The notes under the pieces: generated by a model
What the model saw: only the letters and a program-made list of their open reading frames with translations
Told to the model about the DNA's origin: nothing
Databases searched by the model: none
Position numbers and translations under genes: made by a program
NCBI RefSeq assembly: GCF_000497125.1
Contig: NC_090597.1
Span: 693,797-757,796, forward strand
Length of the DNA stretch: 64,000 bases
Direction of reading: 5' to 3'
Source of the DNA: Spironucleus salmonicida
Taxonomy: Eukaryota
Shown here: piece after piece, positions 1-59,000 of the stretch
How the letters are laid out: each line of letters starts with the position of its first letter
How positions within the stretch are numbered: position 1 is the stretch's first letter

Positions 1-2862
1 CTTCATTTATTTTATCTTTTAAGTGTAATCCTTTCGTTTGATGCTGTCTCTTCCTTTCTTGCATTACTTTATAATACTTATATGTTTGCTTTAATTCCTT
101 TAACCCATGATAGAACACTCCATCCAATTCTAATCCATACATCTTAGTTACTCCCTCCGTTTCATCATGGAATACTATGTCAATATTGTATCTTGTATCT
201 AAGAACCTTTGATTGTATAGTATATTTGTTATCTTGGTAAAGTTGGTTCCTAAAAGTTTATTTATCATTCCACTGTCATTCAAAGTTAGATGTGCTAAGC
301 GATACTCGCATTTCGATTTGCTATGTTTTAGATCTTAATAACCTATTTATATTTTTATATTGCAGTGGTGTGTGAATAGGTTCATTGGCATTGATGGTGC
401 TGTTAAATAGTTGAGGATGTTGACACTCTATTCCTTTAGTGATACCTCTACCCATTTCACTAGAGCTTTGCTTAAAATGAGCTATCTTGAATACAATAAT
501 TAATATACTAATCAATGAAGTCTAAGTGATCATAGTCGTTAGCATATTAATTGAACTCATCCAAGCTTAACTTATCAAAGTGTTTCTGTTATAGAATGCC
601 TTCTTTTACTAATTCACTTATTGATTTAAGACTCCCTCCGTTTTAAATATACAAATCAAATATATCTTTTGTTAAAAACGTGTATGACTATAGTTGTTTT
701 CGAACTTCAAGTCCAAGGGCCAATTCCTTATTTAGTTTAGATAATGGTGAAGTTATGAGTCTAAACGAATCCTTAAACGACATTCCATTTATTTTCAAAT
801 TCAATAGCTTGTTGTTTGTAATCAGTGTTTCGAATTCGAATTGCTCTTTTACTTTCATTATAACTGCTAATAATAAGTAGTTGTCATATCCTGATGCATT
901 GTGTGCATAGAAGTCTTTTATCTTATATTTCTTAGCTATTAGTTCCATGTGCCTTATAAATTTGATTAGCAAATCGTCTGTTGAAGTGATGCAGTTGCCT
1001 GATTCTTTTAATCTAAGTTCGTTACCATAAAAGTGATCCATCTCTTCATATGTGTTTGTTTCCTTATCGTGTATGTTTATAATCCATATTACTAAAAATG
1101 GGATGTGTTTCATTGAATACTTTGAATAGTTATCATCATCTTCATTTAGATTCTCGAATAGGCTTTCTATATCCTGAGTTAGAAATGATTTCTATTCATC
1201 ATAAAGGTTTCCTTGTTTGAAATACTATCCTTCATATTCAATTTACGTTTTACATTTGCGTGATGAGTTGTGTGTCGTATTACAATGACTGCATGGTGAA
1301 AACTTCTCGCATTTCTTTTAATGTCGTTCTAAGCATTTGCTATTGGGTGTGTTATGGAGCTATATTTTACAGTTTTAACATTAATAACTTTTGTTGTCTT
1401 TTGATCTTACATGACTGTAGTTGCAAAACGTACAATAATACTTAGTAGCCACTTCTTCTGCTTGTGTACATTCATAACATTGGTTCTTCTTATGGAAGAG
1501 GTTTTGGTGTTGATAGCAATAAATATATTCCTTGTGCATTGGGTTTATTGTATTTATGCATTGCTTAAAATCCATTATGACATTGTAATGTCCACTGCAT
1601 AAAACTAATAAAAGCTCCATTTCTGAATTTGGATACAAGTCATTTACTTTATTAACTTCTGCTACTCTTATCTTTATATTCAAATATCATTCTGCTCTTA
1701 TTAGTATCTCTATATCTGCTAACTCCTCTGCATGTTTGTTGATTTCATTTATACGCATATGCGTAAAGTAGTATAAGTATTAGTTTCTAGCTTTAGTTTT
1801 GTCTAAGGGCTTATCTAAATACGTTTGTAAAGCCTTACCTGCATCAAATGCTATTGTGGCCATTGTATATGGTCTCGCTCCTAACTAAAAGATATGTTTC
1901 TTATCAACTGTTTTTGATTTCTTGATGAATTCTGCAATGATGGCCGCATATAGACAGTTGTGGTCATTATTTTTGACAAAGAATATAGACCCTTTAAATT
2001 TTTACTCTAGTGTTGCGTTTCCTTAATACCGATGACCTACATTTCTACATATCAATCCTATTTAATAACCTTCATCATATTAAGAATCTACTTCTGATAC
2101 ATAAAACTCATCCTTCTCTTTACATACTTTTTATACTATTTATTCAGAAGAAATGACCTATACGTTTATGACACCAATATTTTAAAAAAGCATTACATCT
2201 GTACTGCTAACATCTCTATTAAAATACTTCTCTCCATTGTCCATTACTTCTTCAAATATTGATTCTAATAGACTTGACATCTAATTTTAAATTATGAATC
2301 CTATAGGAATGATGTTACCGTTTTATTTAATATATCTAATATTTGCAAACGCATATGTGTCTTAATAATTAGACTTGCCGTAATATAGACCCATATAAGG
2401 TGCATCCGTTATGATTTCAAAGTGAATCTTACTGTTAAATTTATTTTAAAAGTCTTCAAAGGAGTTAATGTATTTTAAATCCATCTGATCCAATTTGAAA
2501 TCCCTCCTTATGGTCTCAAGTATGGTATCGTTTTCGTTAGTATATTTATCATAATTAATTTTGAATTCTTCTATTTCTGCTATACTTTGTAACTTTGATA
2601 TCTTATCTATTTCATTATTAAGTTTATTTAACATTCTAGGTTCTAATCCTTTTTGAATTCTTGTTTTACGTTATGATTTCATTTATTCATATTTAATATT
2701 TTAAGCTCTTAGTTAACTAACCTTTTCGGTGTACCATCTTTACTTAATGAATTGGTTGTCGAATCTATATGTTTCGTTTTTAATCTTTTGCATATTGGTT
2801 TTCACTTTATTGTCTAATATATTTATGTAATCGTATGGTCTTTCAAATTAATTATAATCCAT
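1..2862 (-). pseudogene. Polinton/Maverick-type protein-primed DNA polymerase B, left copy (N-terminal and exonuclease part, cut by the window edge)
   Basis: Code 6 gives MDYNQFE..., NNDHNCLYAAII, LCSGHYNVI, CxxC clusters, ExoI DIES, ExoII YAHNASGYD and ExoIII YCIQD. Premature TGA at 1687-1689 (AGG in the right copy). A 1-nt frameshift at ~480 is shared with the right copy. Start codon uncertain. Confidence 0.85.
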
Positions 2863-6830: not shown

Positions 6831-8400
6831 TCAGTTAGCTAGATATTTAATTGTTGAGCTTTTAATATGATTAGTTAAAATTGATAGTTGCTTTATCTTG
6901 ATGATACAAATATAAACCACAAAGTCTACAATTAGTCCAACCGTACCTAGCATGCTGATATCTATACTAATATATATCCAATCATCATCTAGTGATCTGT
7001 ACATGGCAAGTACCATATGTAGGAGAATCATTATTTTACATTTAGTGATAACCCTGCAGAAGTAAGTCACCATCAAAATAGAGTAAAAGATCATTTATGG
7101 TTTCAAAAAACACATCGCAATTTCATTATTCTTATTCGCAAATATGAAATACTGACATTCTATCAGAAACCCATAAACACAGTTTTATTCTTCTTGGTTG
7201 GTGACGTACTACTAAACGATTTATAAAAACTAAATAGAAACAATTTATTTTAGGAGAGCTAAACTTCATTGTGTATACGATAATGTTGACTTAAAATAAT
7301 ACTTCCATCGGCAGTCTATATTATCTAAATAACAGGATTGTATCATGATAGTATAATGGTAAGAGGAATAATTTATCAGTTGATTAACAGTGCATGTTCT
7401 ACGTCTTGTTGAGCGAATCATTAGTCGTACCTTAATAGGTATCTGAATCTGCAAGGTGATCCTTCTATAGATAACTAGCTATTCAAAATCACATTAACTA
7501 CTAAAATAGAAACTTAATATAATATAATTAATACGATTTAACATATGTAGATTATCCACAGCTGTCGTAAAGTAAGATATTACCCTGCAACTAACCTTAA
7601 TCATTACACGTTATTATAATATTACTTTACTCAATATTCTTGCCAATTTAATATATTTTTAAGACAATCAAGTATGTCTCAAAAGTAACAATTAATATCA
7701 CATCAAAATCTCTACAATCTGAAAATATGCAATTTTCCATTCCTAAATTGTACTGCAAACTATACAAGATGATTATATCAGACATTCTCCTTGTTTCATG
7801 GCATTTGCACTAAATTTGATTTAACCAGTATAACCCACAAAGATATAGTGAGAATTGCACCGAAAATATCATAACAGCAAATCACTGTGATAGTTCCAAT
7901 TTGTGTAAGTTTGAGCAGATCGGATATATTACAATTTTAGAGGTCGTCATTTCGTAATTTGCAGAATGGGGGATTTGATTATTGGGAATGTAGAGATATA
8001 GTTAAAGGGATAATAAGTTAGTATTGTGATAGTTAAAATGCGATAAACGAGTTTTCTAGGAATATAAAATATAATCAGGTGGCGCTATACGTAATTTTAG
8101 AATATTATAGTATAATATATTTAAATATGGGTATTGCGAATAATTAATTCAATTGTCATTCGCATAGTAGTATTTTATTTCTAGGATTATTAAATATACT
8201 CACAAATATGTTCCGAGTATATTAATATCGCAAAAATGAAATATGTTTGATAACAATATAAGCTGGCCAAGCAGTATTGACAGGTACCTTGCGGAACAGT
8301 AAAAGTTTCATATAGTAATACATCTATATCTATATAAATGCTTGATAATAAGATATCATTTTGCATTAGGCAAGCGAAAGCAAATTTAACTTGAGCGAAG
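6831..8400 (-). pseudogene. Possible decayed type-I membrane protein gene
   Basis: Broken frames ending in a hydrophobic segment plus basic tail (ISMLGTVGLIVDFVVYICIIKIK...). Boundaries uncertain. Mirrored at ~51700-53282. Confidence 0.3.
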
Positions 8401-8864
8401 TCTGTTGGACATTATTTTGTAGCATCATTAACTGGTATATGCATCCGTATGCTGAATCTGTTTTTGTGTTAAATTTGTTAGTAGGACCTTGCCAACCGTA
8501 TTTACTTGCAAGACATCAAGACTTATGGGTAAACTTCGTAATATTACAATAAACAATATTTAATTTATATTTAGTATAATAATTCGAATTAGACATTTTT
8601 GAATACTTACATAATACATTAATATTAACTTATAAAAACAACCAGTAAAATTTTAACAATAACTTTTGTATTAATGTGTTAATAATAATATACTTGAAAT
8701 TTGCATTTCACAAATAATTAGGCTTTGTATATTTATTTATAATTAAATTCACTTTGTGATAATATAAGTATAATGTAAATTATTTAAGTATTGTTAAAAA
8801 CTAGAAACTGCTATCAAATAATACAACATAATTAATAGAATATATGAAATTAAATCTTTATAAA

Positions 8865-11033
8865 ATGGAAGTAGATCCAGGAACCTGTAAGTAAGATAGC
8901 AGTAATTGTGGAGAAGGATATTTTTGCACATACCGTGCTTAAGAATAGAACTCAATAGAAATGCCGTGCGCTAAGTGTAAAGAGACATGCGTGACCTGTG
9001 CAGGTTTAAACGCAAATGTCCACCACTGTACGAGCTGCAAAATGGGAGAATACCTGTCTCACGATAACTATTGTCGCAAATGTCATAAAGATTGCGAGTA
9101 ATGTACTGGTCCTGAGCAATCATGTGATGGATGCAAAGATGGCTTCTAGGACACTCTTGGGGAATGCGAAATTTGTCCAGGTGAGGATGATTAAGAGAAT
9201 GATTGCGTATGCGGTACCTCGAAACACTGTTTAGATTGCAATACATCCAACATGAAATAATGTGCAAGCTGCCAAGAGGGGTACGATATAAATAGCTCAA
9301 CACCATGCAAAGACTGCCTCCCAGGATACGTTTCAATAGCTATTAAGGATGAAAATATCTGTGTTGAGTGTGATAATACCTGCAGAGAGTGCTCAGGCAC
9401 AAAGACCACGTGCACGGCCTGTAACGATGGTTTTATTTTAAGTGGAAATGCCTGCACTAAGTGTTTGGCTGAAACGACTCAGATCTGCCCGTGCGGCAAC
9501 TCCCTCAATTGTACGACATGTAACCTTAATAATACTAATGCGTGCGCTACTTGCAAGGAACATTATGATACAACCGCAAGCCCACCCTGCTCTAAGTGCG
9601 AACCTAAATATTTTGAGCAAAATATTACAAATGGAAAGGAGTGCACCCTTTGCAGAAACTAATGCGAAACTTGCATGGATGTAAACAAATGCCTGACCTG
9701 TAAAAATGGGAGTTTCTTAAAAGAGGGCAAGTGTGAATATTGCTATGGTGCCTAGAATATCTCCTGTACATGCGGGACTGCCAAGAACTGCGGGACCTGC
9801 GATACTAAGAAGCAGACGACATGCCTAACATGCATGCACGGTTTCGACTCAACTAAGGAAGGTGCGTGCGATACCTGCAGCGAGGGATTCTTCAAGAAGG
9901 TTTCTAAGGACAATTTCACATGCGAACCTTGTACTACCGCTAACTGCGCTCAGTGCTCTGAGAAGAAGGAGGAATGTACAAAATGTGTGTATAATATGTA
10001 TTTAAATGAGTAAAAACAGTGTCAGCAGTGTGCCAAAGGAGATGGGATTCCGTGTGATTGCGGTGCCGTCGTTAACTGCGATACTTGCTCAACAATTTAG
10101 CCATCAAAATGCGGAGAGTGCTTCCCTGGCTACGTAATTGACAAGAATGGTTCCTGCACTCTCTGCGCGCTGAATTATGTCAAGATTGGTGATAAGTGCG
10201 TTAAGTGTGGTGTGGACAACTGCCAAACCTGCTCGGCAGACGCAAAAACGTGCGAAAAGTGCAGAAATAATTTCATTCCCAAAGATGGGAAATGCGAACC
10301 CTGCAGCGAGAACGGCCCCCAGTGCCTCTGCGGGACCACGGTGAACTGCAGTACCTGTAAGCTTAGTGATACAATGAAGTGCAAAAGCTGCGTTGAGGGC
10401 TATCAGATTGATAGCAAAGAAACATGCACGAATTGCGCGCTGAATTACGTTAAGATTGGTGATAACTGCGTTAAGTGCTAAGTAGAGAACTGCGCCACCT
10501 GTATGCCGAACGGCACGATGAAATGCCAAACCTGCTTGAAAGGCTATCAGATTGATAACACAGGAACCTGCACGAACTGTGCGGTGGGTTATTAAAAGAA
10601 GAACGAAAAGTGCGAATTCAACTGCGAGTTGGCGGCGAAAGACGGGGAATTTTGCTAGAACGGCCAAGTTATCAAGTGTGGTACAGCTGGATAGACTGTC
10701 GAGTGCACGTGTGGAAATCTTCACAACTGCAAGAACTGCTAGGGGAGCGTTTGCTCCAGCTGCATGACGGGCTATCTTTTGGCTAGCAGTGCCTGCAATG
10801 GATGTGATAAGGGATATGAGCTACAGGATAAAACATGTGTAAAAAGTGCTGAGAACTAGAGTGGGATGCCTATCAGCACGATAGCCGGTATTGTTGGTGG
10901 AATATTGGTCGTAATCGGCGTTGTAAGCGTCGGTTTAGCTGTTTACTTGAAGAAGCAGAAGAAGCAGAAGAAATTTAATAGCATATCGACCTCTGACAAC
11001 AATGTTGAGCCACTTAGTAACGTACTTTGGTGA
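8865..11033 (+). CDS. Large cysteine-rich membrane protein (722 aa), CRMP family with longer cytoplasmic tail
   Basis: MEVDPGTCKQDSSNCGEGYFC..., repeated CxCG...NCxxC modules, TM ISTIAGIVGGILVVIGVVSVGLAVYL, tail KKQKKQKKFNSISTSDNNVEPLSNVLW*. Start, internal fragment 10212 and stop share one frame. Confidence 0.9.
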
Positions 11034-13244
11034 TAGTAACATTTTTTATTATAATTTTTTGCGGCTAACCATTAACTAATTAATAGTATCCACAGAACTT
11101 GTGATTAGCGAGTATAATTCACGGCCGCAATAATTGAATTCAGTCGACGATATTATTTTTAGCAAAATTAGAAAGAAGTGTCTATATAGAGTTATATATT
11201 AAATGTTTGAATATAAATTTAATTAAATATCATTAGACCTTTCAGATCCATCTTCACAATCTGTGAAACTGAGCACTGCCTCATAAAAATACAATATGCA
11301 ACACCCACTCTAGCGAATCTTCACTAAGCTAGTTCTCGTTGATAATAAATATTTACAATTTGTAGTACAGCCCTATTTGATGTAGACTAACTGCAAATTT
11401 CAATACGGTCTCTACTTTGAACACTACAGCTGCTACATAACAAATAGCAATAACATCACATAGTTACCTTCTTGAAAAATAATAGTCATGCTACCCACCA
11501 ATCCATTCTACTAAACTAAAATATGCCACCAAAGTCCCTATTTTTACTGCACAGATCACCTACTATTATTTTATTGAATATATATCTAATATTCTCCAAA
11601 ACTATCACCCCAATCTATAAAAGTAATACAAGCTGAATTTTCGACTTTTTTGAGCCAGCAGACACGAGCAGCGCCTAATTTTATCATTATTATATCACGT
11701 AAAACAGTTAAACTCATTTTAGCATATTCAATAGTTATTTCATTTCCAGCATCATAGTCAACTACAGCACAAAATACTCAATCTTTTCCTTAGTCAAAAT
11801 TTTCAAGTAGAAAGGTCTCCTGGGCTGATTAGCATTTTACTATGTTATTATCACTTGAACACCTTTATAATTCTGCTTAAGTTTTACACGCTTTGTAGGA
11901 ATAGTTACATTTGACGCATTGATTTTTGATCGTGAAATATCAAATTTTGCATTAATAGCACTCGCTATTTATGGTAAATCAGTAAGAACATGCACAGGAG
12001 CCAATTAAAGCGATACTTATTTTTGCATTTTCCGCAGTTTGCTACAATATAGTAACACATGTAATGCGGGATCTTCCAGAATTAATTATAGATTTAGATA
12101 TTATATTCTTCTTTAGCATTATTGGAATTAGTGCTATTGGATGGTGAAATCTCGTAGGTTTAGTTTCAGGATTTTGCTGCGCATGAGCACTAAATTTCGC
12201 GTGTGAAGCTCATCCTGGTGTTCTATAACTAAACTGTTCAGGTTCGGAAAATGGAGGGACTGAAAGTATGGTTATCCTGTGTCGATGCAGTTACCTTGCA
12301 TGCTTTGTTATTCTATTTTAGTCGTAATAGGAAATGGGAACATTTAGCAATTTCTGGATTCAAGTTTTGGAACCAGTATTGTTAATGAGTTGCTTAGATG
12401 CACTAAGTAAACTGATAAAAATTTAAGAATTTCATAGGAGGAGGGCTGTGAATAATCATAAATTTACGGGTAAGAGGACTTCGAAGTTGTAGGTTTTAAG
12501 GTTCATTCGGTAGAGTCAAGAAACTCAGTTTGGTAGGTATAGAAGACGTATGTTGCTGGAAGTGGAATAATAGGATATAGGATATTCTAAAATAGGTAAG
12601 AGTCTTGCTAGGGTGCTGGCAGGATGGAAGTGGGTTTGCATTCTATGTGATTGTGCTGGCCATGCACAGGATGGTTTAATACATTTTGCTTAGTATAAGA
12701 ATCAAATTTTATTAGGTGTCCTGGTAATGCTCACTAAATATTAGGAATGATATTCAAAGCTATTTCATTCTATATTTGATATTAGTTAATACTAGAGATA
12801 CTTCATGCAAATGATAATTTAATATTAATTATATATTATATTAAAATAACTTATTTGTTAATTTAGAAGAGAATGAAATCTACCTAATAGTATAGCTACC
12901 TAAAAGGAATAGTATCCATTAAGCAGTGAATATCAATAATGAAATTTCATGTCATTTAAAATAATTCAGCAACATAGAAATAATACATATTGCTTAATGG
13001 TATTTGCAGTCTCAATATCGTTTTATTAAAGCTTCGTAAACCATTTCTAGCTGAGTTTTGAAATTTTATTTAGAAAAATACCTTTACTTAAGCTAATAAT
13101 CAATAATATCAAATTCAGTCTATATCTAGGATAATTTAAATTAATAATGGTAACAATGATAGAATTGATTTCTGAAAAATCAATTAATAAATTTCACATA
13201 TTCTGAAGACACTAGAATATTAATGTGAAAAATGAAAATACTTT

Positions 13245-14249
13245 TCACTTCTTGGCTCTCTTGATGAAGTAATACGCCAGACCACCGCCGACGCCACCTG
13301 CTACCACTAAAACAGCAATCACAATTCCAGTCACCGCGCCGCCTGAGAGGTTCCCAGATTCCTTTCTGGGGGCGAAGCAGAAGGCTCCAGTCTGTTCAGC
13401 CCCATCATCGCAATTTTTACATTCATCAGCCTCTAGCTTGTATCCAGGCAGACAGGAGGTGCACTTTTTGTTATCTGAGTTACAGGTGAGACAATTTTTA
13501 GCATTTGTACACTTACACTCCGTTATCTTGGCTTCATTTCCGCAGGTTATACCAGTGGTACCAACGCATGCTTATCCTTCTGATAAAGCTGGGCTGCAAT
13601 CAGCCTAACATGTTTAGTTGATCGTCATCTGGTGACCAGCCTAACACGTATCGCACAAATCAACGCCCTATGAGCACGTAGCACAACTATCGCTGCATTT
13701 TGTGCAAACTGAATTGACCATCATATAGCCATCAATGCAGGCATTGCATACATCACCGTTTTTCTTATAGCCAATAATACAGGTTTCACATTTAGATGCA
13801 TCACCAGAATTGCAGTTGGCGCAGTTGAGAGCCACACCACACTCGCATTCTTCTGTTGTATTTGCAGCGCAAGTACTACATTTACCATCTTTTAAGAAGA
13901 AATTGCTTTTACATATTTAGCATACTTCTTTGTTTCCCGCGCAGTTCTCACAATTCTCTGGGCAGGCCAAGCAGGTGGTTCCGGAAAGCAGATTTCCTGA
14001 TTTACACTCGCTGCACTCAGTAGTAATATTAGCACATTTAGTACATTTAACGTCACATTCTGTGCACGAATTAGAGCTGAAAAACTTACCGTCGGCGCAG
14101 GTCAGGCAGGCACTTGCAGCAGCTGCTGAGCAGGTTGCACATGTATTATCACACGCCGTACAATCAGTTGCATCTTCAGGGACATTAGCAGGACAGAAAA
14201 ATCCATCTTTGCAAGTGTTCTTGTCGGCAGAAGTACATTTGTTATCCAT
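13245..14249 (-). CDS. Cysteine-rich membrane protein, CRMP1-type (334 aa)
   Basis: MDNKCTSADKNTCKDGFFCP..., CxxC repeats, [31 protein letters not shown], tail KRAKK, AGTGA stop. Confidence 0.93.
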
Positions 14250-15029
14250 TTTAAAATAAATGGAATAGTTATTCTTATATGTATATTGGATATGAATAAG
14301 TAATATCAGTTTTTGTTTCTTCTTATCTTTAAATAGTAAGTAGTATTACCTTCCATTAAACATATATTTCATGCGTACTTCTTTATAAATTCGTAATAAC
14401 CTATTTTATTTATACCATTATCAATATAAATAAAAAACAATCTTATGTTTTATCTTCTATTTATTATTATTATTATTTTATGACTAACATGAATTTGAAT
14501 GTAACTTTTATACTTTTTCAAATTAACAATGAATATATTTCGATAACGACATATATATACCTAAGAATCTTTAAATTATTATTTTAATATTATACACTAA
14601 ATTGCTTAAGTATATTTCTAAACATAAACAAAAATACGTAATTTTGATATTAACAAAATTAACAACTACTTGTCAAGATTGCTTTCGATCAAACCTAAGA
14701 AATAAAATCTATAATTTTGCATGTTTCCTTATTCCATCTCAATTAAGCCTTAGCGTAGTATCGTATTTCAAAAACATCACAATATCATATTTGATAGAAG
14801 CTGCAATTCATGCAATTTTTATCAATTCACATGTCTTATTCTTTTAAGCATAAAAGCTTTTTCAGTACTGCTTAGATGCTACCAAAGTAAAATTTAAAAA
14901 TTCAATGTCGCTACTTATTACATCATCTCAATATAGGTTATTCATATTATCAAGCGTTTGATATATAAGCTCCTCTTCTGTCCATTCTCTTTTGAAATTT
15001 TTCATATCATATCTATATATTATTTAATA

Positions 15030-15620
15030 TCACTTCTTTCCTTTCTTACTCAAGTAATACGCGAGGCCGCCACTATAATAATTCCAGTTAACATGCCATG
15101 ACAAATATCCGTCAGAGCCTTATATAAAAACGAAAAACCCTACTTTTTCAGCCCACCGCACAATCCGCCCAATTATCCTCTTTCAAGATATAGCCAAGAA
15201 GGCAAATTGCGCATTTATTGGTACCCCTACCTGTGAATTTTCCATCTATAGAAACATAATTACGCGTATTTATGCACCCAGTTCACGTATCATGACTATC
15301 TTCTCAACATGTACAACGAACATCTCCACATGCTCCCCTGCCTCTGAACTTTCCTAGCAAATGCCTAAATTCTAACCAACAGCATCTCGTAAACGCAGTT
15401 TATCATTACTTTTTGCACTGCATGCTAATTGTCCACGCATTCATCTAAGCACTCATAATTTGTTCGCTAAATCAAATTCATGCATGTTCTATGTTAATAT
15501 CTACTTTCATTTTACAATGTGTTGCTCCTCAAAATTATCTTATTTTGCAGTACACGAAAGTGGAAATAAATGGGTTTCCAGCAGATTTTGCCCTGCAAAC
15601 CGCGCCCTCTTAGCAAGGTC
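15030..15620 (-). pseudogene. Decayed CRMP1-type gene
   Basis: Recognisable 3' end (GGLAYYLSKKGKK*, AGTGA) and scattered CxxC remnants (CLPGYILK-like) in shifting frames. 5' limit uncertain. Confidence 0.7.
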
Positions 15621-16389
15621 TCCTGGGATCTGAAGCGCGAGCGAGCCCTTCGGAGGCTGCGCGCGTGCGGTTTTGGGTGCAAATTCGATACTGGAGATCG
15701 TGAAATGTGCGAGGTAACAGCGGCAGAAATGGAAGTTTGTGCCTAGAAAACTGTTTGTATTTGAGTTGGTCTAGACGTCAGGAATTAGCTGTGGGGAAAT
15801 GAAAGGCATGAGTAGGGCAGGGTAAGAAGTCTGCTTAGGATGCAGGAGATGCATGGTATTCGCATGATTGCAGTGATATAATAAGGTGTTGGGGTTGTTG
15901 CGTTTGTGTGGGATGTTAACTAGCATTATCATAGTCAGATATTAGGGGAATAGGGTAATAATGGGTTGATAGGGTGCGGTTAGTAAACATACTTTGTACT
16001 ATAGTAATAATAATACAAAATTGGTATTATACAGTTTAATAGAAATTAGGTTTTAGGTAAAACAAATAGAATACATATTGGTGAGGTATGCAATTACTAA
16101 TCCCAGGGAGTAAAATAGTTTTCTTAATGGCGTGGTTAAGCTATCTATAGACCTAGTATAGATAATACTAACCATCATGAGATAGTTAAGGTTGCTGCAG
16201 TAATAGCGTGATGTATTTGAATTAACTACTTATGACCTTATCTCGTTTCTGCTCAGGTAGGATTATTTCATAAATATGATAATTTATTTAAATATCTGCA
16301 CAGATACAGCGTATGGTGTGGGTATAATGCTAGGCTCACTATAGTACGTATATACTTCAGCGACCTGATGCTATTCTCAAGCTATACTT

Positions 16390-18000
16390 ACATGGCTGCT
16401 AACAAAATCATCGGAAACCGAAAATATGGTTGTTGCAGTGATGTTAATTCATATCAGCCCATGCTCCAGAAGGACAGCTTACGTATTTCCAGCAAAGGCT
16501 GCCCAGGTGGAGCTGGATGCCAGATGAATGACCAATGTGAGATATAAATTTACTAAATATTCAATTTAGTCAACTGGTAAGGGAGCCTGCACGTATACCC
16601 CGTACCTGCTGAAGTTTCTAACCCGGCTACGATTTTACAGCAATGCGTGCAGACCTTGCCAGATTGCGCTATTTCGCTGGATACTTCCATAGCATGCGTC
16701 GAATGCAAGCAGTGCTATATTTTTATTTTAACCGAATACCCTAAGTGCATTGCGAACTCTATCTGCTTCTCTGACTAGTTATTTTGTGAAGAAGGTGAAA
16801 AATATTTTCGAATAAAAGAATGGTTCTGTGCGTCTCGCCTCCGGGGAAGCGAATAACGCAGAAGGGCATCCTGCTCCACTTACATGAAGGAATATATACT
16901 GTTGAATTTTACTGGTCAGCCTTGTCATGGAGACTGCGCCGACCGTGTAGGAGATGAATGCTACGAGTGCAACGAAGATTAGACGGCTAGCGACAATTTC
17001 TGCATAGTATGTCCGGTAAATTTTGCAAATGCAGATAGGTACAATACTACAAGATATGGGATGCTAACCACTCTAGCAATCCGTATAGAAGCAGATTCAG
17101 CTTCTGCATGTCTTGTCACTACTGGGCTGCGATGGAGTGTTGCGAGCGAATTTGGTGCCCTAAATCCATGATAGCCTAGCAGATTATGCGGTGTGAAGAC
17201 TACGGGATATACCTGTACGCCATCCATGAGGATATGTTACATGCAGAGGAGATTAAGATTTCAATAAGTATATAATTGGGATTTAAAAGTATGCCATGCA
17301 TTCATAAGCTGTTGTAAACATTATCAATGATGCGCAAATGCAGAAATATGAGAAGAATACGCACTTTGGTATCGCCCAATGACAGGAACGAGTATGTGAA
17401 TGAAAATAGCACAGATGTTAACCTTAGCCATCTAGGAAGGCAAGAGGCAGCGAGAACCTGGAGGCGTTTGCATTCAGTGACAGACCTTGAGCAGGGTGTG
17501 CTCTGGCAAAATATTTGCGAGTACTTTTTATCTGCAAGGTTTTCGAGAGACAGAACACACGAGAAGAATAATAGCAACCGGAATCTTTGCCCACCAGGCT
17601 CCTAGTACGAGAGTGTCTATGCTGGAACCTAGGACTACCAATTCATGTGATTTGCAACAAGTACGAGACTTTGAACGCGTAGTTCCTGTGCAACCCTGGC
17701 TTTAGCTAACTGTATGCAAAGAAGAGATAACAGTGCGAAGTTCAAGTAAGCCTTGAGTGCTTAGATTTTGGCGAACCGCACGATATGGCGAGTTGGTCCG
17801 CGCTATGCACATAGACCGGAAAACCTGAGGAAATAGGTTAATCTGCTTATCTAGCGATGCAGACTTGGTACTGGTAGAGGGAGGCTGCGCGTGCACACGA
17901 GTTTGGAAGCGGCTCTATTACAGTATTGGAGGGGGTCTTGCCACCGCATGTTACTCAATCTTAACTGGGTTGCTTAAGCAACGAATGTCAAGAGAAATAA
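16390..18000 (+). pseudogene. Decayed large cysteine-rich membrane protein gene
   Basis: Fragments such as CHGDCADRVGDECYECNED and IACVECKQC, ending in TM-like IGGGLATACYSILTGLLKQR. No continuous frame. Boundaries approximate. Confidence 0.55.
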
Positions 18001-18329
18001 TGGTTTCCTGGCACATGGCAAGACCCTAGAGTCAATAGGGAAAGGATTCCACTAAACGGCCCAGAGGATAAAATGTTGACCAGAAGTAAATTTTGAATGA
18101 AATTCATTGATTCTCTAATATGACGATTGCATGCAATATTCCAACAGTAGGTAATCGATTTCCCATCCATTTTGGTTTGCAACAGCTCCTGTCACTTATG
18201 GGGTACTAGTAAGCTGATATTGTTTTTCGGAAAGGGAGTATATTGTATATTAACATACCAAATCAATATATCATACTAGGCAGAACCGCGATGAACACCG
18301 TGCTGACCCCATTGATACCATCGCAAAAC

Positions 18330-19420
18330 CTCGCAGAATGCGGTCGCGGTACTTTGCTAGTTGCTTTTATTTTCTATCTTCTGCCATATTCTCAAAACTA
18401 GTGCCCAACCTGCGCTGGCAGTGCTGATGCCGGCCAGCCCGAGCGGGATCCCTAGAGTGACGCCTATGTGCATGTAGCCATCACTTTTCTCATAAGCACG
18501 TATTAAATATATTCTAGTCCAGCTGCACTGGAGCACTCCTTGCACGCCTGGCCAGCCAGCTGATCCCGTGTAGCGCACTTTACGTACTTTCGCAATCGTA
18601 CGTAAAGCAGTTGCGGTATTTCTCGCTTCTGTACTCGGTCTGATAAACGGTGTGCCTGTACTCCGTAGTACACCGTCTCTGCTGTACTGTCCACCTGCTA
18701 GTTTGGAATACAAATGAGCCGGCAAGTGCCCATAGCCATTTATACCCTCATACACAGTGTTCACATGACCAGAATCACCTGTTTATAGCATCTCTGAAAA
18801 CATCACGGTGGGTTTCCCTTCAGTACCGTAAGCGAGACAGCATCTTTAGCCTTGGTACGTGCAGGGTTTCACTGCTTCCCCAATTCAGGGTTGGTAGCCA
18901 AATCCCTCTAAATAGAAGCAGCTGGACACGAAGTGCACCAAGTCTTGCCTCCTGGGCATGATTTGCAGGGTTATGCGAAATTCGTCAAAATCACCTTGCT
19001 AGCATTCCTGGCATGACATGTTACCAGAAATTCCGCAGCCTAGAATGCAGTTGCCGCACGCAGCCCTGTCAAGTTAATAGGACACGCCGCAGTGCTTTGA
19101 GGGTCCGCAGGTGCACTCCTGGTAGCATGTACCCCGTCTTCGCATTCGAGGTAGGCACCACCGATCTCGTGATGGCCATCCTACCAGGGCCTGCGCGTAC
19201 GCACAATTCTAGTTGTATATGTTGCAGTATTACCATCGCCGAGGTAGTGATATTTCTTGCGACCTGAGCAGGTGATGCCGTCAGGTCACCTTTGTGTGAC
19301 ACTAAGCTTCTGCAAAGCATGTAGGGAGGAGTGTAAAGCAGAGGTTCGGGACAGTTATCAGCGGGTATGAGCAGCCATCGACACAGTTTAGAGAGTGTAT
19401 CTTTCAGTTCCTGGGGCTGC
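18330..19420 (-). pseudogene. Decayed membrane (probably cysteine-rich) protein gene
   Basis: Remnants such as CKECSS and a terminal TM-like IGVTLGIPLGLAGISTASAGWALVLRIWQK. Frames interrupted. Confidence 0.4.
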
Positions 19421-19975
19421 GGAGATGGGAGATGGAAATTTTGGGAAGGGTGGTACGATCTGCTCTGGGTAAGAAGGGTGCCCAGCGCAAGTGGAAGTAT
19501 GTACAGGCGGTATGCAGTTTGTATTTGTAGGTCGGGATTGGTTTCTGCGTGAGCTTTACAGGCGGGATATTGGCGTTAGAATTTGTAATAGAAGGCTCTC
19601 ATCAGGTCTATCGCGGTTTCTGCAAAATATATTTGCGGGCGGTAGCTGTACCAATCGAGAACTACATAAGGCGCTTAAAAATTATTATACACCAAGTCGC
19701 CTATTCCGCGAGATTGGAGTTTTAGCTACTCTAGTCTATAATTCTGCTTGTATTAGTATCCTACAATATCCTTCCAAATCAAGTCTGGCAGTTTTATGCT
19801 CCTGGGATAATATATGGTCCGTAATGACACACTGACGATGCTAATTCTGCGTAGCAACGATCCTGCGAGATACGACGCTGCGTGCGCCACCCTATATAAC
19901 TCCCTATGCGCAGTTTCACTTAGTACATATTATACGCTGATACCCGAGTAATCATTTCCGTTACCACTCCACAAA

Positions 19976-21451
19976 ATGTCTGGCAAGAAGGAAAAGACCC
20001 AGAAGCAGAACATTCGCTCAGGCCTCGAGACCTTCAACCTCCCCAAGTCCAACTTCTCGGACTGGTACGACGCCATCATGGACGCCGCCGAGATCGTCGA
20101 CAGGCGCTACCCCGTGAAGGGCGCGCCCGTCCTGCGCCCCTACGGCTTCTTCATGCACAACGCCATCATGCGCAAGATCGAGGACGACTACGCCGAGCAG
20201 GGCATCCAGCAGTCCCTCTTCCCCACGCTGATCCCCCGCTCCTTCCTGGCGAAGGAGGCCGAGCACATCAAGGGCTTTGAGTCGGAGTGCTACTGGTGCG
20301 ACCGCGGCGGCCTCGACGCCCTGGAGGAGCCCCTGGCGCTGCGCCCCACCTCGGAGACCGCGATCTACTCCATGTTCGCCCTCTGGACGCGCTCGTTCCG
20401 GGACCTGCCCCTCAAGATCCACCAGACCTGCTCCGTGTTCCGCTTCGAGACCAAGAACACCCGCCCCCTCATCAGGGTGCGCGAGATCCCCTGGAACGAG
20501 GCCCATACCGCTCACGCCACCCGCGAGGAGGCGCTGGCGCAGATGAAGATCTACTGGGAGGTCTACCTGTCAGTCTTCGAGGCGATGGGCTTCTACGGCC
20601 AGAAGCTCGTCCGTGCCCCCTGGGACAAGTTCGCCGGGGCCGAGCACACTGAGGTGCTGGACGTCGTCATGCCCTGCGGCAAGGTGCTGCAGACGGCGGG
20701 CATCCACTTCCTCGGCCAGAAGTTCGCCAAGGTGTTCAACATCAAGTTCATCGACCAGAACAACACCCAGCAGTTCGCCGAGATGACTTGCGCCGGTATT
20801 TCCACCAGGGCGCTTGCCTGCGCGCTCTCGGTCCACGGCGACCAGAAGGGCCTCATGCTCCCCAGCCTGATCGCCATGTACCAGGTCGTACTGGTGCCCT
20901 GCGGGAAGTACGGCGACGACCTGGTCCTCAAGATGAAGGAGATCCAGCAGACGCTCAAGGCGGCCGGCATCAGGTCCTTCTTCGACGACTCCAAGAAGTC
21001 CATGGGCGAGAAGATCTTCCACTGGGAGATGAAGGGCGTCCCTCTCCGCATCGAGCTCGGCCCCCGCGACCTAGAGAGCGGCGACTTCGTGGCCATCTGC
21101 AGGGACACCGGCAAGGACGGCAAGCAGGTCTTCAAGGTCCAGGACATCGCGGCGGTCGCGAGAGACCAGCTGGCCCAATACGACAGCAGGCTCAGGGCGG
21201 CAGGCAGGGCCTTCGCGACCGAGAGGTGCGCCACCTGCAGGACGCTCGCGGAGGCCCAGGCCGCCGTCCCCAGCGGCTTCGCCAGGGTGCCCCTCGCGGA
21301 GCTGGAGCAGTCCCTCGAGGAGGCCTTCAAGAAGCTCGTCGTGGGCGCCGAGATCCGCGGCTACGACCCCGAGGCCGCCTGCGAGGGCGAGCTGTGCGTC
21401 GTGACCGGCGCGCCGGCGAAGTTCTGGTGCTTCGTGGCGAGAGCGTACTGA
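19976..21451 (+). CDS. ProRS: Prolyl-tRNA synthetase, archaeal/eukaryote-like type (491 aa)
   Basis: FSDWY, RYPVKG, LALRPTSETAIY, motif 2 FRFETKNTRPLIRVREI.W.E.HTAH, HFLGQKF, CAGISTR, anticodon-binding WEMKGVPLRIELGPRD, C-terminal ARAY. Strong GC3 bias. Confidence 0.98.
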   Translation: MSGKKEKTQKQNIRSGLETFNLPKSNFSDWYDAIMDAAEIVDRRYPVKGAPVLRPYGFFMHNAIMRKIEDDYAEQGIQQSLFPTLIPRSFLAKEAEHIKGFESECYWCDRGGLDALEEPLALRPTSETAIYSMFALWTRSFRDLPLKIHQTCSVFRFETKNTRPLIRVREIPWNEAHTAHATREEALAQMKIYWEVYLSVFEAMGFYGQKLVRAPWDKFAGAEHTEVLDVVMPCGKVLQTAGIHFLGQKFAKVFNIKFIDQNNTQQFAEMTCAGISTRALACALSVHGDQKGLMLPSLIAMYQVVLVPCGKYGDDLVLKMKEIQQTLKAAGIRSFFDDSKKSMGEKIFHWEMKGVPLRIELGPRDLESGDFVAICRDTGKDGKQVFKVQDIAAVARDQLAQYDSRLRAAGRAFATERCATCRTLAEAQAAVPSGFARVPLAELEQSLEEAFKKLVVGAEIRGYDPEAACEGELCVVTGAPAKFWCFVARAY

Positions 21452-21461
21452 GATTGTCATT

Positions 21462-21668
21462 TCACTCGTCTAGGTAGTCGAAGTTGAGCATCTGGCCCTG
21501 CTGGTAGTACGCCGAGAACGCGTTCAGCTCCTCGAACTTCTGGTGCTCCCTCTCCAGGTCGCGCGTCGAGTTCGCGAGCAGGAAGTCGGTGTCGTGGGCG
21601 GCCGGCAGGCTGGCAAAGCTGGTCTGCGTTTTGCGCGCGATCTCAAATTTCTGCTGCAGAACGTTCAT
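21462..21668 (-). CDS. Small hypothetical protein (68 aa), convergent with ProRS
   Basis: MNVLQQKFEIARK...FDYLDE*. GC3-rich codons, C-rich motif before the ATG, AGTGA stop. Differences between the arm copies are synonymous. Confidence 0.75.
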   Translation of the reverse strand: MNVLQQKFEIARKTQTSFASLPAAHDTDFLLANSTRDLEREHQKFEELNAFSAYYQQGQMLNFDYLDE

Positions 21669-21871
21669 TTGGAGTGCGGGTGGAACGGTAGGGCAAGGTA
21701 TTGGGCGGTGCAGATGCGGACGCGGTCCCACCGGTGCATGGGCAGCGCTACTGCGGGCGGCAGGGGCAGCTTGGGTGCGCGCCTGCAGCTGGGATAGCGT
21801 TCCAATCCTCCTGGCCCAACTCGCCAGCTAAATGGCTTGGCCCATCGTCGCGCGCAGTGAGACAGCACAGA

Positions 21872-22252
21872 TCACGAAAAGTCAATCCGGCCGACGTACT
21901 CGTCGTAGTCGATGCCGAAGTGCTGCAGCACCTCGCGGTTGGGCAGCTGCTTGCCGGCGTGGGTCTGGGGCTGCGTGCTGCCCTCGAATCCCGGAAACTT
22001 GACCCGCAGCGTCAGGTCGGTGAAGTCCATGAAGTAGCGGCCGGAGGAGGTGAGGACGCCCGTCTCGTAGCCCTGCAGGACGCCCTCGGGGCAGAGGACG
22101 AAGGAGTGAAACGCGAAGTTCTTGACGATCTTGAAGCCGCTCTGGCCGTGCTCGTTCAGCTCGAGGGAGAAGAAGCAGCCGCCGTAGTAGTAGACGGAGG
22201 GCTCCTCTACGGACCGCGCGACTGCGATCGATGCGTAGTCTGGAAGGGACAT
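21872..22252 (-). CDS. Hypothetical protein (126 aa)
   Basis: aaaATG context, MSLPDYASIAVARSVEEPSVYYYGGCFF...GRIDFS*. Strong GC3 bias. Same protein in the right arm. Confidence 0.75.
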   Translation of the reverse strand: MSLPDYASIAVARSVEEPSVYYYGGCFFSLELNEHGQSGFKIVKNFAFHSFVLCPEGVLQGYETGVLTSSGRYFMDFTDLTLRVKFPGFEGSTQPQTHAGKQLPNREVLQHFGIDYDEYVGRIDFS

Positions 22253-23828
22253 TTTCGGTGCGTATGCTGACAATTATACAGAACTCGAGATAGTATTCCG
22301 CCACTATACAAAGCAATGCGCGCCAGCCGATGGGCGCTCTGGGATGCGGTGGGCGTGCGAGAGGACCCGTGCTGCACCAGCTGGCGGGAGCCTTCAGCCG
22401 CGGAGGTGCCGCTCGCCTGAGGAGCTAGAGGCGAGGAGCACGCGCAGGCGCTCGGCAGTGTGTCCGGCTGCTAGGGGGTGCCTGCGTACTACTATAATGG
22501 TGCGGTGCCGTCCTGCCTGCCCTACTGCATGTCGGCAGCAACGGCACCGCTGGTGCGGACCAGAGAAGGCGCCCGCTTTTTCTCGATATGGCTAGTATGG
22601 TATTGGTGTACGCAAACTAAAAAATGCAAAGTGGAGTGGGAATCGTAAACATTGTTTGCATATCTATTTGGTGCAAATGCAGTAACTAATAGCCAGCAAT
22701 GCGCAACTCCGCCTCCTGTAATTACTGTCTGCTTGGTTTATTGTACCTCGCGAGGCCTGCCGCAAGAGCAAAGATACCGGAATATATATTAGAGTCGGCT
22801 CCATAAGATGACGATGCTGTCCATCGCGGCGCAGCACACCCAGAACCTGGGGAGGGCCACGAGTCCACTGCGGCCAACACGAGGCATAACGTTAACATCG
22901 CCCACTGGACCGGTGTGCGGGTGACGGTGCCAGTTGACATCATCAACTTCGGGATATCGGCTTCCATACAGTGATAGTGGGGAGCGTAACTTCTGCTCAC
23001 CACGCGGACACCCGACTTCACGCATAACTTCAACTTCTTCTACTCGGACTTCCGCAGCCCGCGGTTCTGCTACCAGGTCCGCCCAGTAGGCAGCCTAGTT
23101 CAGCGCGATCCGGCAGAACGATATCTCCCTCCCGATCCTGCTGAGCAATAGTGAGAGCAAGGTTCGGATGCTCTCCTAGCAGGTGGGGCGAAGGGCTCCC
23201 GGAGGGTCCAGATTGCAGCGCTCTCCGACACGATCTTGCGCGTTGTGATCTTCTCCATGGTCGGCGAGGCGTAGACGCGCATGTGAGGCTAGTCCGCAGG
23301 GCCTGGAGGTTCACGCGGCAGGTAGTAAGAGGATTATTTGTATAGGTTTGTGCTATACTAAAAGCATGGGTTTTAGCAATTATAGTTTAACGTCATGTTA
23401 ATGTTCATTTTGATGATCTGCCTTACGTCGCATTTTCTGAGTTTGCTTTTTCAACTAAATTATATTTAGAGTAATATTGTTACTTTGATGGCACTATTAA
23501 AGACATATAAGTAGCTATTAAAAGTTAAACTACTAGTACATTAATATATTAAAAATAACTTATATGTATGTTTTATGACAAATTTTTTAAATAATTTTTA
23601 GCATTACTATTTATTATATGCTATATAAACTGAAGAATCACTTTGATTGAATCATCTATTAAATAGGATAATTATATTCTTTTATTAGTTCATAAGAATG
23701 GGTATTTACTATGAGAACAATAATATTATTTAATCATATATAATATTAAATAAATATTATAATAATGATTATCTACTGTAAAAATAAATACCATACTTGA
23801 TACAAATATAATTATATCTAAGAGAAAA

Positions 23829-27147: not shown

Positions 27148-27166
27148 TATATTCTTGTTTACCCTG

Positions 27167-36707: not shown

Positions 36708-36717
36708 AATGACAATC

Positions 36718-56019: not shown

Positions 56020-59000
56020 AATACCTTACGATTGTATAAATATATTAGACAATCAAGTGAAAACCAATATACAAAAGATTAAAAACGAAACATATAGATT
56101 CGACAACCAATTCATTAAGTAAAGATGGTACACCGAAAAGGTTAGTTAACTAAGAGCTTAAAATATTAAATATGAATAAATGAAATCATAACGTAAAACA
56201 AGAATTCAAAAAGGATTAGAACCTAGAATGTTAAATAAGCTTAATAATGAAATAGATAAGATATCAAAGTTACAAGGTATAGCAGAAATAGAAGAATTCA
56301 AAATTAATTATGATAAATATACTAACGAAAACGATACCATACTTGAGACCATAAGGAAGGATTTCAAATTGGATCAGATGGATTTAAAATACATTAACTC
56401 CTTTGAAGACTTTTAAAATAAATTTAACAGTAAGATTCACTTTGAAATCATAACGGATGCACCTTATATGGGTCTATATTACGGCAAGTCTAATTATTAA
56501 GACACATATGCGTTTGCAAATATTAGATATATTAAATAAAACGGTAACATCATTCCTATAGGATTCATAATTTAAAATTAGATGTCAAGTCTATTAGAAT
56601 CAATATTTGAAGAAGTAATGGACAATGGAGAGAAGTATTTTAATAGAGATGTTAGCAGTACAGATATAATGCTTTTTTAAAATATTGGTGTCATAAACGT
56701 ATATGTCCTTTTTCTTGAATAAATAGTATTAAAAATATTTAAAGATAAGGATGAGTTTTATGTATCAGAAGTAGATTCTTAATATGCCGAAGGTTATTAA
56801 ATAGGATTGGTATGTAGGAATGTAGGTAACGGGTATTAATAAAACGCAACAGTAGAGTAAAAATTTAAAGGGCCTATATTCTTTGTCAAAAATAATGACC
56901 ACAACTGTCTATACGCGGCCATCATCGCAACATTCACCAAGAAATCAAAAACAGTTGATAAGAAACATATCTTTTAGTTAGGAGCGAAACCATATGCAAT
57001 GGCCACAATAGTATTTGATGCAGGTAAGGCTTTACAAACGTATTTAGATAAGCCCTTAGACAAAACTCAAGCTAGAAACTAATACTTATAATACTTTACG
57101 CATATGCTTATAAATGAAATCAACAAAGATGCAGAGGAGTTAGCAGATACAGAGATACTAATAAGAGCAGAAAGGTATTTGAATATTAAAATAAGAGTAA
57201 CAGAAGTTAATAAAGTAAATGACTTGTATCCAAATTCAGAAATGGAGCTTTTATTAGTTTTATGCAGTGGACATTACAATGTCATAATGGATTTTAAGCA
57301 ATGCATAAATACAATAAACCCAATGCACAAGGAATATATTTATTGCTATCAACACCAAAACCTATTCCATAAGAAGAACCAATGTTATGAATGTACACAA
57401 GCAGAAGAAGTGGCTACTAAGTATTATTGTACGTTTTGCAACTACAGTCATGTAAGATCACAAGACAACAAAAGTTATTAATGTTAAAACTGTAGAACAT
57501 AGCTCCATAACACACCCGATTGCAAATGCTTAGAATGACATTAAAAGAAATGCGAGACGTTTTCACCATGCAGTCATTGTAATACGACACACAACTCATC
57601 ACCCAAATGTAAAACGTAAATTGAATATGAAGGATAGTATTTCAAATAAGGAAACCTTTATGATGAATAGAAATCATTTCTAACTCAGGATATAGAAAGC
57701 CTATTCGAGAATCTAAATGAAGATGATGATAACTATTCAAAGTATTCAATGAAACACATCCCCTTTTCAGTAACATGGATTATAAACATATACGATAAGG
57801 AAATAAAACCATACGAAAAGATGGATCACTTTTATCATAACGAACTTAGATTAAAAGAACCAGGCAACTACATCATTTCAATAGACGAATTGCTAATCAA
57901 ATTTATAAGGCACATGGAACTAATAGCTAAGAAATATAAGATAAAAGACTTCTATGCACACAATGCATCAGGATATGACAACTACTTATTATTAGCAGTT
58001 ATAATGAAAGTAAAAGAGCAATTCGAATTCGAAACACTGATTACAAACAACAAGCTATTGAATTTGAAAATAAATGGAATGTCGTTTAAGGATTCGTTTA
58101 GACTCATAACTTCACCATTATCTAAACTAAATAAGGAATTGGCCCTTGGACTTGAAGTTCGAAAACAACTATAGTCATACACGTTTTTAACAAAAGATAT
58201 ATTTGATTTGTATATTTAAAACGGAGGGAGTCTTAAATCAATAAGTGAATTAGTAAAAGAAGGCATTCTATAACAGAAACACTTTGATAAGTTAAGCTTG
58301 GATGAGTTCAATTAATATGCTAACGACTATGATCACTTAGACTTCATTGATTAGTATATTAATTATTGTATTCAAGATAGCTCATTTTAAGCAAAGCTCT
58401 AGTGAAATGGGTAGAGGTATCACTAAAGGAATAGAGTGTCAACATCCTCAACTATTTAACAGCACCATCAATGCCAATGAACCTATTCACACACCACTGC
58501 AATATAAAAATATAAATAGGTTATCACGATCTAAAACATAACAAATCGAAATGCGAGTATCGCTTAGCCCATCTAACTTTGAATGATAGTGGAATGATAA
58601 ATAAACTTTTAGGAACCAAGTTTACCAAGATAACAAATGTACTCTACAATCAACGATTCTTAGATACAAGATACAATATTGATATAGTATTCCATGGTGA
58701 CACGGATGGCGCAACTAAGAAGTATGGATTAGAATTGAATGGAGTGTTCTATCATGGGTTAAAGGAATTAAAGCAAACATATAAGTATTATAAAGTAATG
58801 CAAGAAAGGAAGAGACAGCATCAAACGAAAGGATTACACTTAAAAGATAAAATAAATGAAGACTCATTTGAAGACATCTTTCATGTAACAGACGTTGAGT
58901 TTATTAAATTTGAATAGGACACCGATATCAAGATAGAGATGCCTCCATAATACAACATAAGCAATAGATTGATATTAGCAGGAGTAAGAACTGAATGCTA

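Follow-up and report, generated by a model that had tools for sequence, protein, structure and literature searches.

Antigen gene arrays such as Giardia vsp, Plasmodium var and trypanosome VSG are mosaics of segmental duplications. In the fish parasite Spironucleus salmonicida, 19.2% of the genome consists of duplicated sequence, and the main text of PMC9509377 describes multi-gene blocks of up to 64 kb, a higher GC content of the duplicates, arrays of genes for cysteine-rich membrane proteins (CRMPs) and a suspicion of gene conversion. Primate X/Y palindromes have been defined by arms longer than ~10 kb with more than 99% identity (10.1101/800185). Here we describe a large inverted repeat in a stretch of 64,000 nucleotides of S. 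salmonicida DNA (the window), which corresponds to positions 693797–757796 of contig NC_090597.1 (C2) in a genome of 14.5 Mb and 42 contigs. Among the main texts of the literature, as distinct from supplements, we found no description of this repeat or of Polintons in Spironucleus. We assign a probability of roughly 70% to the reading that the locus is an old inverted segmental duplication within a CRMP antigen array, in which patches have been overwritten among copies and fragments of pPolB genes are passengers. We find the structure most aptly classed as an inverted segmental duplication that is subject to non-allelic conversion; it represents a large new example of known processes.

The original prediction, made from the letters of the window alone, had proposed mirror-image arms around a ~7.4-kb spacer (25386–32782), with the left arm leaving the window. 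Self-BLAST of the window returned three inverted blocks that agree with this description (1–4626/58861–54251, 93.7% identity; 5617–10502/54495–49609, 89.2%; 12190–24990/45983–33175, 94.4%). In the following, negative positions and positions above 64000 are window coordinates extended into the flanking stretches of C2. With these flanks added, the arms measure ~33 kb each (-7624..25385 and 32783..66488), are separated by the 7.4-kb spacer and span 74 kb overall. The inverted repeat is thereby confirmed as real and larger than first described. Its inner ends coincide with the stop codons of a pair of 518-aa genes (inner genes), and its outer ends both fall within CRMP frames. Identity between the arms is 50–77% across the inner gene and ~40% past 25400. 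The principal parts are the following.

1–25385, plus strand: left arm, part inside the window; extends left to -7624 (C2:686172), where it ends within a CRMP gene.
32783–64000, minus strand: right arm, part inside the window; extends to 66488 (C2:760284), where it ends within a 628-aa CRMP frame.
25386–32782, no strand: spacer; single copy except for a histone H2A gene and a diverged membrane-protein family.
14801–23890, plus strand: near-identical core of the left arm; 60 clustered substitutions in 14801–23850 (99.34% identity); two copies in the genome.
34280–43369, minus strand: near-identical core of the right arm, as located by the identity profile.
10503–12189, no strand: left-arm block without a right-arm partner; an upstream direct copy has the same block (95–98%).
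45984–49608, no strand: right-arm block without a left-arm partner; lies within a stretch common to C2:799983–805093 (97%) and C2:911456–917080 (90%).

A profile in steps of 200 bp confirmed that identity is as patchy as had been claimed. Values of 97–100%, 98–100% and 96–99% were obtained for 14.8–23.8 kb, 6.2–7.4 kb and 8.4–8.8 kb, while the regions proposed to be diverged gave 88–96.5% (7.4–8.4 kb), 84.5–90.5% (12.2–12.8 kb), 87% (14.6–14.8 kb) and 70–88% (CRMP genes). Some blocks are indeed non-homologous: besides the two listed above, left-arm positions 4627–5616 have no partner. The 9.05-kb core reaches 99% identity (99.34%), and the whole arm chain, at 93.4%, does not.

To examine whether both arms exist, we used read contigs from four of eight listed runs over positions 14500–32700; three of these runs are presumed to be DNA from one sample, and none provides long reads. 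In these three runs the length-weighted depth of the listed core contigs exceeded that of the spacer-side contigs by factors of 1.87, 2.12 and 1.65, which is consistent with two real arms, although contig-derived depth does not give an exact copy number. Where the core shows an alternative letter, it is that of the right arm in 36 of 36 cases (among 40 of 49 variant rows, with four rows near the H2A gene excluded). The read contigs fork at 23891–23930 into both inner genes, and each branch leads into one end of the spacer, so that the two copies surround a single spacer. Finally, the core differs between arms by 0.66%, about 7 times the allelic heterozygosity of 0.09% given in the main text of PMC9509377. 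For the core, these observations largely refute the reading that two haplotypes or fold-back reads were mistakenly joined as arms. The read sets possibly come from the same sample as the assembly and comprise contigs only, and still we regard such an artefact as extremely improbable.

The age of the repeat is suggested by gene pairs that lie in register on one diagonal of the arms. Their synonymous divergence (dS) is about 2.2 for the inner genes, 0.86 and 0.45 for two CRMP pairs, and 0.006 for prolyl-tRNA synthetase (ProRS). The outer arm also occurs in two further places, as a direct copy 60.7 kb upstream (copy C) and as a copy at C2:900–918 kb (copy D). We aligned these with the left arm (A) and the right arm (B) over 10,209 common columns and obtained pairwise identities of 92.7 (AB), 93.9 (AC), 93.2 (AD), 91.3 (BC), 92.1 (BD) and 94.0% (CD). 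Hence, the left outer arm is closer to its direct copy C than to its inverted partner. The 299 informative sites divide into 153 that support AB|CD, 103 for AC|BD and 43 for AD|BC. Along the alignment the partner switches 61 times, whereas 10,000 shuffles gave 178.9 switches on average and no fewer than 148. Runs of 16 and 20 informative sites join A with C, and the blocks lacking in one arm are present in other copies. The longest run joins the two arms:

6173–7309, plus strand: arm-to-arm tract; 62 consecutive informative sites unite A and B against the two other copies.

A search for donors covered the window and 73 further stretches of the genome; in the two genome searches behind it, 38 of the 63 and 39 of the 66 candidates were scored. 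Thirty of 41 outer-arm bins are less than 97% identical between the arms, and a third copy with at least 99% identity was found for four of these 30. Another seven of the 41 bins are at least 99% identical between the arms; in six of them no third copy exceeds 98.3%. Because a 99% donor is lacking among these stretches for 26 of the 30 diverged bins, the outer arms do not appear to be a recent copy that was later overwritten. The 62-site run, the runs test and the donor test all point indirectly to arm-to-arm gene conversion. The original prediction of an old palindrome maintained by conversion between its arms is therefore supported with respect to age and to conversion, and falls short in that the exchange includes other copies. 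As far as the alignments tell, we read the repeat as old, with all copies taking part in a patchy exchange. Similarly, the inverted arms as such are there, yet the outer arm exists in at least four copies in the genome, rather than two.

The near-identical core contains ProRS, and a Pfam match verified the claim that this gene lies inside the arms:

19976–21451, plus strand: ProRS; 491 aa, intact, GC content at third codon positions (GC3) of 96%.
36718–38193, minus strand: second ProRS copy; same protein, 2 synonymous differences, dS 0.006.

These two genes are the only ProRS matches in the genome, and the entire region of 15–24 kb is two-copy save for short matches at its outer edge. Since there is no third copy, the inner 9 kb would exchange only from arm to arm. 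Substitutions in the core are clustered, with 23 neighbours within 30 bp instead of the expected 10.7, a value that was reached in none of 10,000 shuffles. Non-coding GC content is 37–66% in seven of eight core stretches (the eighth measures 8 bp) and 18–29% in five of six spacer stretches. GC3 of ProRS contrasts with that of the diverged inner genes (24–29%). We considered GC content alone as a means to date the core, and this approach is weakened by a single-copy GC-rich gene in the spacer. The core also includes 2.3 kb of DNA (17200–19500, 47% GC) without a recognisable gene, where two frames match no Pfam or NCBIfam family.

Could the core be younger than this reading suggests? A single event, either a long-tract copy or a fold-back on an old inverted gene pair, may have duplicated the 9-kb core or the whole arm. 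In this scenario the inner paralogs, perhaps together with the CRMP pair at 13/44 kb, would be the old inverted homologies, ProRS would have been single before the event, and the outer arms would have been scrambled later. Consistent with such an event, the core has a sharp boundary within the inner gene and is uniformly more than 97% identical per 200 bp; large palindromes have been described to arise through fold-back priming at inverted repeats (PMC7999016); and a repeat on contig C6 has 13-kb arms with 98–99% identity that end at pPolB. The 26 donor-less bins argue against it, as do the clustered differences and the GC-rich non-coding DNA of the core, which fit repeated exchange better than one event. 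Moreover, the core alone would still require transfer from arm to arm. We therefore consider a recent copy unlikely.

Several observations weigh against an old repeat under patchy exchange. A third copy with at least 98% identity exists for 10 of the 30 diverged bins, and the donor test covers part of the genome, so that unseen donors may exist. Runs of informative sites in the coding parts of CRMP genes may include alignment effects. The longest identical stretch of the core measures 1069 bp and is only marginally long (p 0.03). With regard to base composition, the single-copy Myb-like gene of the spacer has a GC3 of 90%, so GC content is not diagnostic; the near-identical outer patches contain only 18–32% GC; and sites that join the arms against the other copies show no G/C excess (55 vs 73). 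Lastly, the substitutions are unpolarised, and the age is a relative one.

The inner boundary of the core falls into the gene pair that faces the spacer:

23829–25385, plus strand: left inner gene; 518 aa, hydrophobic C-terminal stretch, no Pfam family; its first ~60 nt lie within the core.
32783–34339, minus strand: right inner gene; 59.8% amino acid identity to the left copy, dS about 2.2.

About 60 nt into this gene, identity drops from 98–100% to 68–78% within 50–100 bp. The two proteins are each other's closest paralogs (58% identity vs at most 34% for others). We can rule out that a third paralog overwrote one of the inner genes, because no paralog is closer than the arm partner.

Arms of this kind could serve as a selected invertible switch, by which flipping of the spacer alters the context of inner and CRMP genes and varies the surface antigens. 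The 9 kb at 99.3% identity would permit crossovers, and the arms do carry different CRMP variants. On the other hand, the 9 kb upstream of each inner gene would be the same whichever way the spacer lies, so that flipping leaves the local context unaltered. In run X5, contigs cover both inner genes similarly (depth 36 and 30). This run is guessed to be RNA; no listed run is recorded as such, and we do not count its coverage as proof of expression. The 56 window frames that we scanned include no recombinase gene. Taken together, a selected switch seems highly improbable.

The same 56 frames contain, according to Pfam, VSP-type CRMPs, ProRS, a histone and a Ras-family GTPase. Genes of this region are open under genetic code table 6; under table 11 only 28 frames of at least 150 aa were found. 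The window contains no tRNA gene that our search could detect, and only six short tandem repeats. The remaining genes of the spacer and the CRMP genes of the arms are listed below.

26788–27147, plus strand: histone H2A-like gene, spacer; five further copies on C2.
31050–31673, minus strand: Rab-type small GTPase (Pfam), spacer.
31601–32593, plus strand: weakly Myb-like frame, spacer; single copy, GC3 90% in the 3' 229 codons.
4132–5007, minus strand: CRMP gene, 291 aa; partly in a block without right-arm counterpart.
8844–11033, plus strand: CRMP gene, 729 aa; partner of the 998-aa gene, dS 0.86.
48247–51243, minus strand: CRMP gene, 998 aa; Pfam VSP, E 4e-18.
13245–14246, minus strand: CRMP gene, 333 aa; Pfam VSP, partner at 43925–44926, dS 0.45.
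43925–44926, plus strand: CRMP gene, 333 aa; Pfam VSP.

Within the AT-rich spacer, the Myb-like gene region at 31900–32500 reaches 71–77% GC, for which a present-day duplication offers no explanation. The spacer also encodes a 513-aa membrane protein (28543–29980), with relatives of 65–66% identity at C2:810770–817640 and C2:1041172–1055814 that form two tandem arrays with a period of ~2.2 kb.

An isolated two-arm palindrome is not what the surrounding contig reveals. The repeat is one among many overlapping duplications in a CRMP field that spans ~400 kb around it and yields 83 rows of Cys-rich frames, some of them split or doubled, such that this figure is not a gene count. C2:574–996 kb holds 15 duplication chains of at least 13 kb (eight inverted and seven direct), and duplications cover at least 80% of 34 of the 41 10-kb bins in C2:594–996 kb. 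A direct repeat of at least 21 kb (98.8%, offset 30.5 kb) is found at C2:944483–996000. On another contig, C6:1038055–1072899 forms a second large inverted repeat with 13-kb arms (98–99%) and an 8.8-kb spacer; here pPolB remnants face inward at the inner ends, and the two copies run into different downstream genes.

The arms of the window were also predicted to carry pPolB remnants, and this assignment is confirmed by matches to PF03175 proteins, the best of which come from Hexamita inflata.

1–3690, minus strand: broken pPolB of the left arm, 5' part; extends to about -1700, in-frame stops and a frameshift.
55167–60600, plus strand: broken pPolB of the right arm; own in-frame stop, frameshift where other copies are also broken, 35% identity to ~1515-aa Hexamita proteins.
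3850–3910, minus strand: GC-rich imperfect hairpin upstream of the left pPolB; motif also upstream of other pPolB copies, z -1.0.
54960–55025, plus strand: same hairpin motif upstream of the right pPolB; z -2.4.
60900–61850, plus strand: decayed frame behind pPolB; 71% identity to the frame behind pPolB at C6:1051461–1052250.

A 749-aa fragment from the right arm shares 34–35% identity with four intact H. inflata proteins of ~1515 aa (E 1e-99 to 1e-105). It gave 31 matches among 2797 candidates, all of them PF03175; the 27 matches beyond H. inflata are weaker. This fragment alone has no Pfam or PDB sequence match; the pPolB query P0001 matches PF03175 above its cut-off. The viral contigs contain no relative of P0001. 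Across the genome we counted 20 pPolB matches, which fall into about ten loci on C2, C5 and C6, and all nine loci mapped by tblastn with P0001 contain stops or frameshifts. The two copies in the window have different in-frame stops, and share the position of a frameshift with copy D and the C5 copy. By eye, Cys and His motifs precede the exonuclease motifs in both the window and P0001, which may fit the TP–vOTU–exonuclease–palm order of Polinton pPolB. The hairpin motif occurs upstream of most pPolB copies and, in inverted form, behind the C5 copy (71% over 136 bp). In three of four copies tested, the motif folds better than shuffled sequences do; the left-arm copy is the exception. No terminal right end with an inverted hairpin was found for the pPolB copies of the window.

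Behind pPolB at C5, C2:1097 kb and C6 lies a broken gene with motifs that, by eye, we take to be Walker A/B and arginine-finger-like, such that the gene may have encoded a packaging ATPase. This ATPase-like gene is absent behind both pPolB copies of the window, belongs to no Pfam, NCBIfam, PHROG or PDB family, and was not confirmed as an ATPase by two structure predictions (pLDDT 37 and 33). As a single fragment it has no homolog; as a profile it recovers six proteins, five of them named Spironucleus. The capsid profile PF21738 has no match in the genome, and none in 14 control genomes either. No integrase, tyrosine recombinase or cysteine protease was detected in 25 element-region frames (of ~108) and 13 further frames, where decayed genes could escape. 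The frame behind pPolB (C6 copy; 60900–61850 in the window) ends in an amphipathic, glycine-rich stretch and occurs at four loci in the genome. We presume that this end recalls the membrane-lytic core proteins of adenovirus-like viruses.

Compared to Polintons/Mavericks and Polinton-like viruses (PLVs), as presented in PMC10120064 and PMC11071308 (main texts), the copies are alike in a pPolB of ~1500 aa (PF03175 in the Hexamita relatives) with Cys/His motifs, seen by eye, where a vOTU domain is expected, in a putative Walker-motif ATPase behind sister copies, in possible inverted ends at some copies, and in the use of the host genetic code, as in Streblomastix elements. They differ in that the copies mapped here are broken, measure ~7–8 kb instead of 15–30 kb, and have no identified capsid, protease or integrase; the copies of the window also differ by having no such ATPase-like gene. 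On the basis of these likenesses, the pPolB pieces resemble, and would work like, remnants of a Polinton-like virus, with membership not fully shown. Hexamita and Giardia pPolB-like proteins have already been met as BLAST hits in PMC11296320 (main text). Spironucleus is not mentioned in the main texts of PMC10120064, 10.1101/2025.04.19.649669, PMC13215967 and PMC11296320; the main text of PMC11071308 does not contain the word 'diplomonad', and that of PMC11787283 contains no mention of Mavericks, Polintons or viruses.

By describing these remnants as outward-facing, the original prediction implied a link between them and the palindrome, which our data do not support here. In this rival reading pPolB could have built the repeats, either because inverted element copies seeded recombination or because the 74 kb as a whole represent one giant element, or a linear plasmid that integrated, whose terminal inverted repeats are the arms. 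A pPolB pair does occur in each of two large inverted repeats (here and at C6:1038055–1072899), a fifth copy (C2:1091–1098 kb) lies between 1.86-kb inverted repeats of 99–100% identity, and the inner boundary at C6 is ~20 bp behind the pPolB match. However, pPolB is not at the arm ends of our repeat, because the arms continue to -7624 and 66488. Its distance to the outer ends is 5.9 kb and to the inner ones more than 20 kb, and the arms end in host genes (CRMP frames outside, the inner gene inside) rather than in ends of an element. Six other inverted chains of at least 13 kb are nearby, several of them away from any pPolB match, and each of the nine mapped loci is broken. Because of the 5.9-kb distance and the presence of the same copy in direct duplications, pPolB would be a passenger here, and we judge a pPolB-built repeat to be most improbable. 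Elsewhere, as the C6 junction and the C2:1091 kb repeats that flank a copy suggest, pPolB may have had a causal role. It is conceivable, if rather doubtful, that endogenous Polinton-like viruses shaped this genome by seeding inverted duplications, shuffling CRMP blocks and placing an ATPase-like module in the subtelomeric repeat of several chromosomes.

Other loci with related content deserve description. At C2:1089601–1100632, inverted repeats of 1.86 kb (99–100%) that contain a 361-aa frame of no known family flank a broken pPolB and an ATPase-like block; a 464-aa frame in the repeat at C2:1089–1100 kb matches only its own copies and five short relatives. The ATPase-like gene also occurs 9–28 kb from several contig ends in a shared subtelomeric repeat and reads away from the contig end wherever the contig extent is known; telomere repeats are present at the C6 and C8 ends.

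C6:14505–15231, C8:14535–15261, C4:13988–14642, C2:27289–28016, C2:1867729–1868440: subtelomeric ATPase-like gene.
C8:1058006–1058732, C1:1888589–1889315, and contigs C14, C15, C21, C23 and C28: further copies of this gene.

A subtelomeric tandem repeat with a unit of ~345 bp occupies C6:9244–11945, C6:24250–30000 and C8:8940–11970. Furthermore, C4:933397–951101 is a 17.7-kb AT-rich element with 1263-bp inverted repeat ends of 99.92% identity. Its frames include a P4/D5-type primase-helicase (TIGR01613, E 1.5e-11), pieces of an SF2 helicase, repeat-rich fibre-like proteins and a 326-aa P-loop protein (P0043) with weak P-loop matches only. We found no pPolB match in this element and, by eye, no target-site duplication. 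It looks like a Polinton-like or virophage-like insertion.

How may such a locus have formed? In the reading that we prefer, an inverted duplication would have arisen long ago, and the arms would have diverged wherever they were not copied back. The mosaic of the outer arm is observed; non-allelic homologous recombination would account for it by overwriting patches between the arms, and between the arms and at least two other outer-arm copies on the same contig. The inner 9 kb would have remained 99.3% identical by arm-to-arm exchange alone, thereby preserving two identical ProRS proteins. The high GC content of non-coding DNA in the core would fit long GC-biased conversion, for which the Myb-like gene provides a counter-example. 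The coding parts of CRMP genes and the inner gene may be too diverged for frequent conversion, or may be held different by selection. The pPolB pieces would derive from one decayed Polinton-like insertion that was present before the segment multiplied. Flipping of the spacer would follow as a side effect of crossovers in the core; we see no sign that this is used as a switch.

This locus shows how an antigen array is constructed in a fish parasite: nested duplications of tens of kilobases trade patches in both orientations, and chimeric CRMP genes are made at duplication junctions. A segment that is present four times in a small genome allows conversion tracts to be mapped, and in this protist the locus is suited to probing both the inversion of a spacer and GC-biased conversion. 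The additional elements may outweigh the palindrome in importance, as they include Polinton-like remnants at about ten internal loci, the subtelomeric ATPase-like module and the C4 element with its 1.26-kb inverted ends.

The antigen arrays of Giardia (vsp), Plasmodium (var) and trypanosomes (VSG) are alike in chimeric junction genes and patchwork identity; unlike these arrays, the field described here lies within a chromosome and has taken up housekeeping genes such as ProRS. The duplicated regions of S. salmonicida in PMC9509377 share with our locus the multi-gene duplications, the higher GC content of duplicates, the CRMP arrays and the suggested conversion. In contrast, the main text of that report contains no orientation, no mosaic analysis and no pPolB, and the strings 'inverted', 'transpos' and 'polymerase' never occur in it. 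Primate X/Y palindromes, which undergo GC-biased gene conversion between their arms (PMC8981503; see also PMC8600007), are alike in large mirror arms, a short spacer, a core above 99% identity, a GC content that in our core also lies above that of the flanks, and inferred conversion. They differ in that only 9 of 33 kb reach 99% here, in that additional copies in both orientations take part in the exchange of our outer arms, and in that primate palindromes reside on sex chromosomes, while the host here is a protist in which no sex chromosome is known to be involved. By this comparison the whole arm does not pass the identity test of a palindrome, whereas the core would work like a primate sex-chromosome palindrome.

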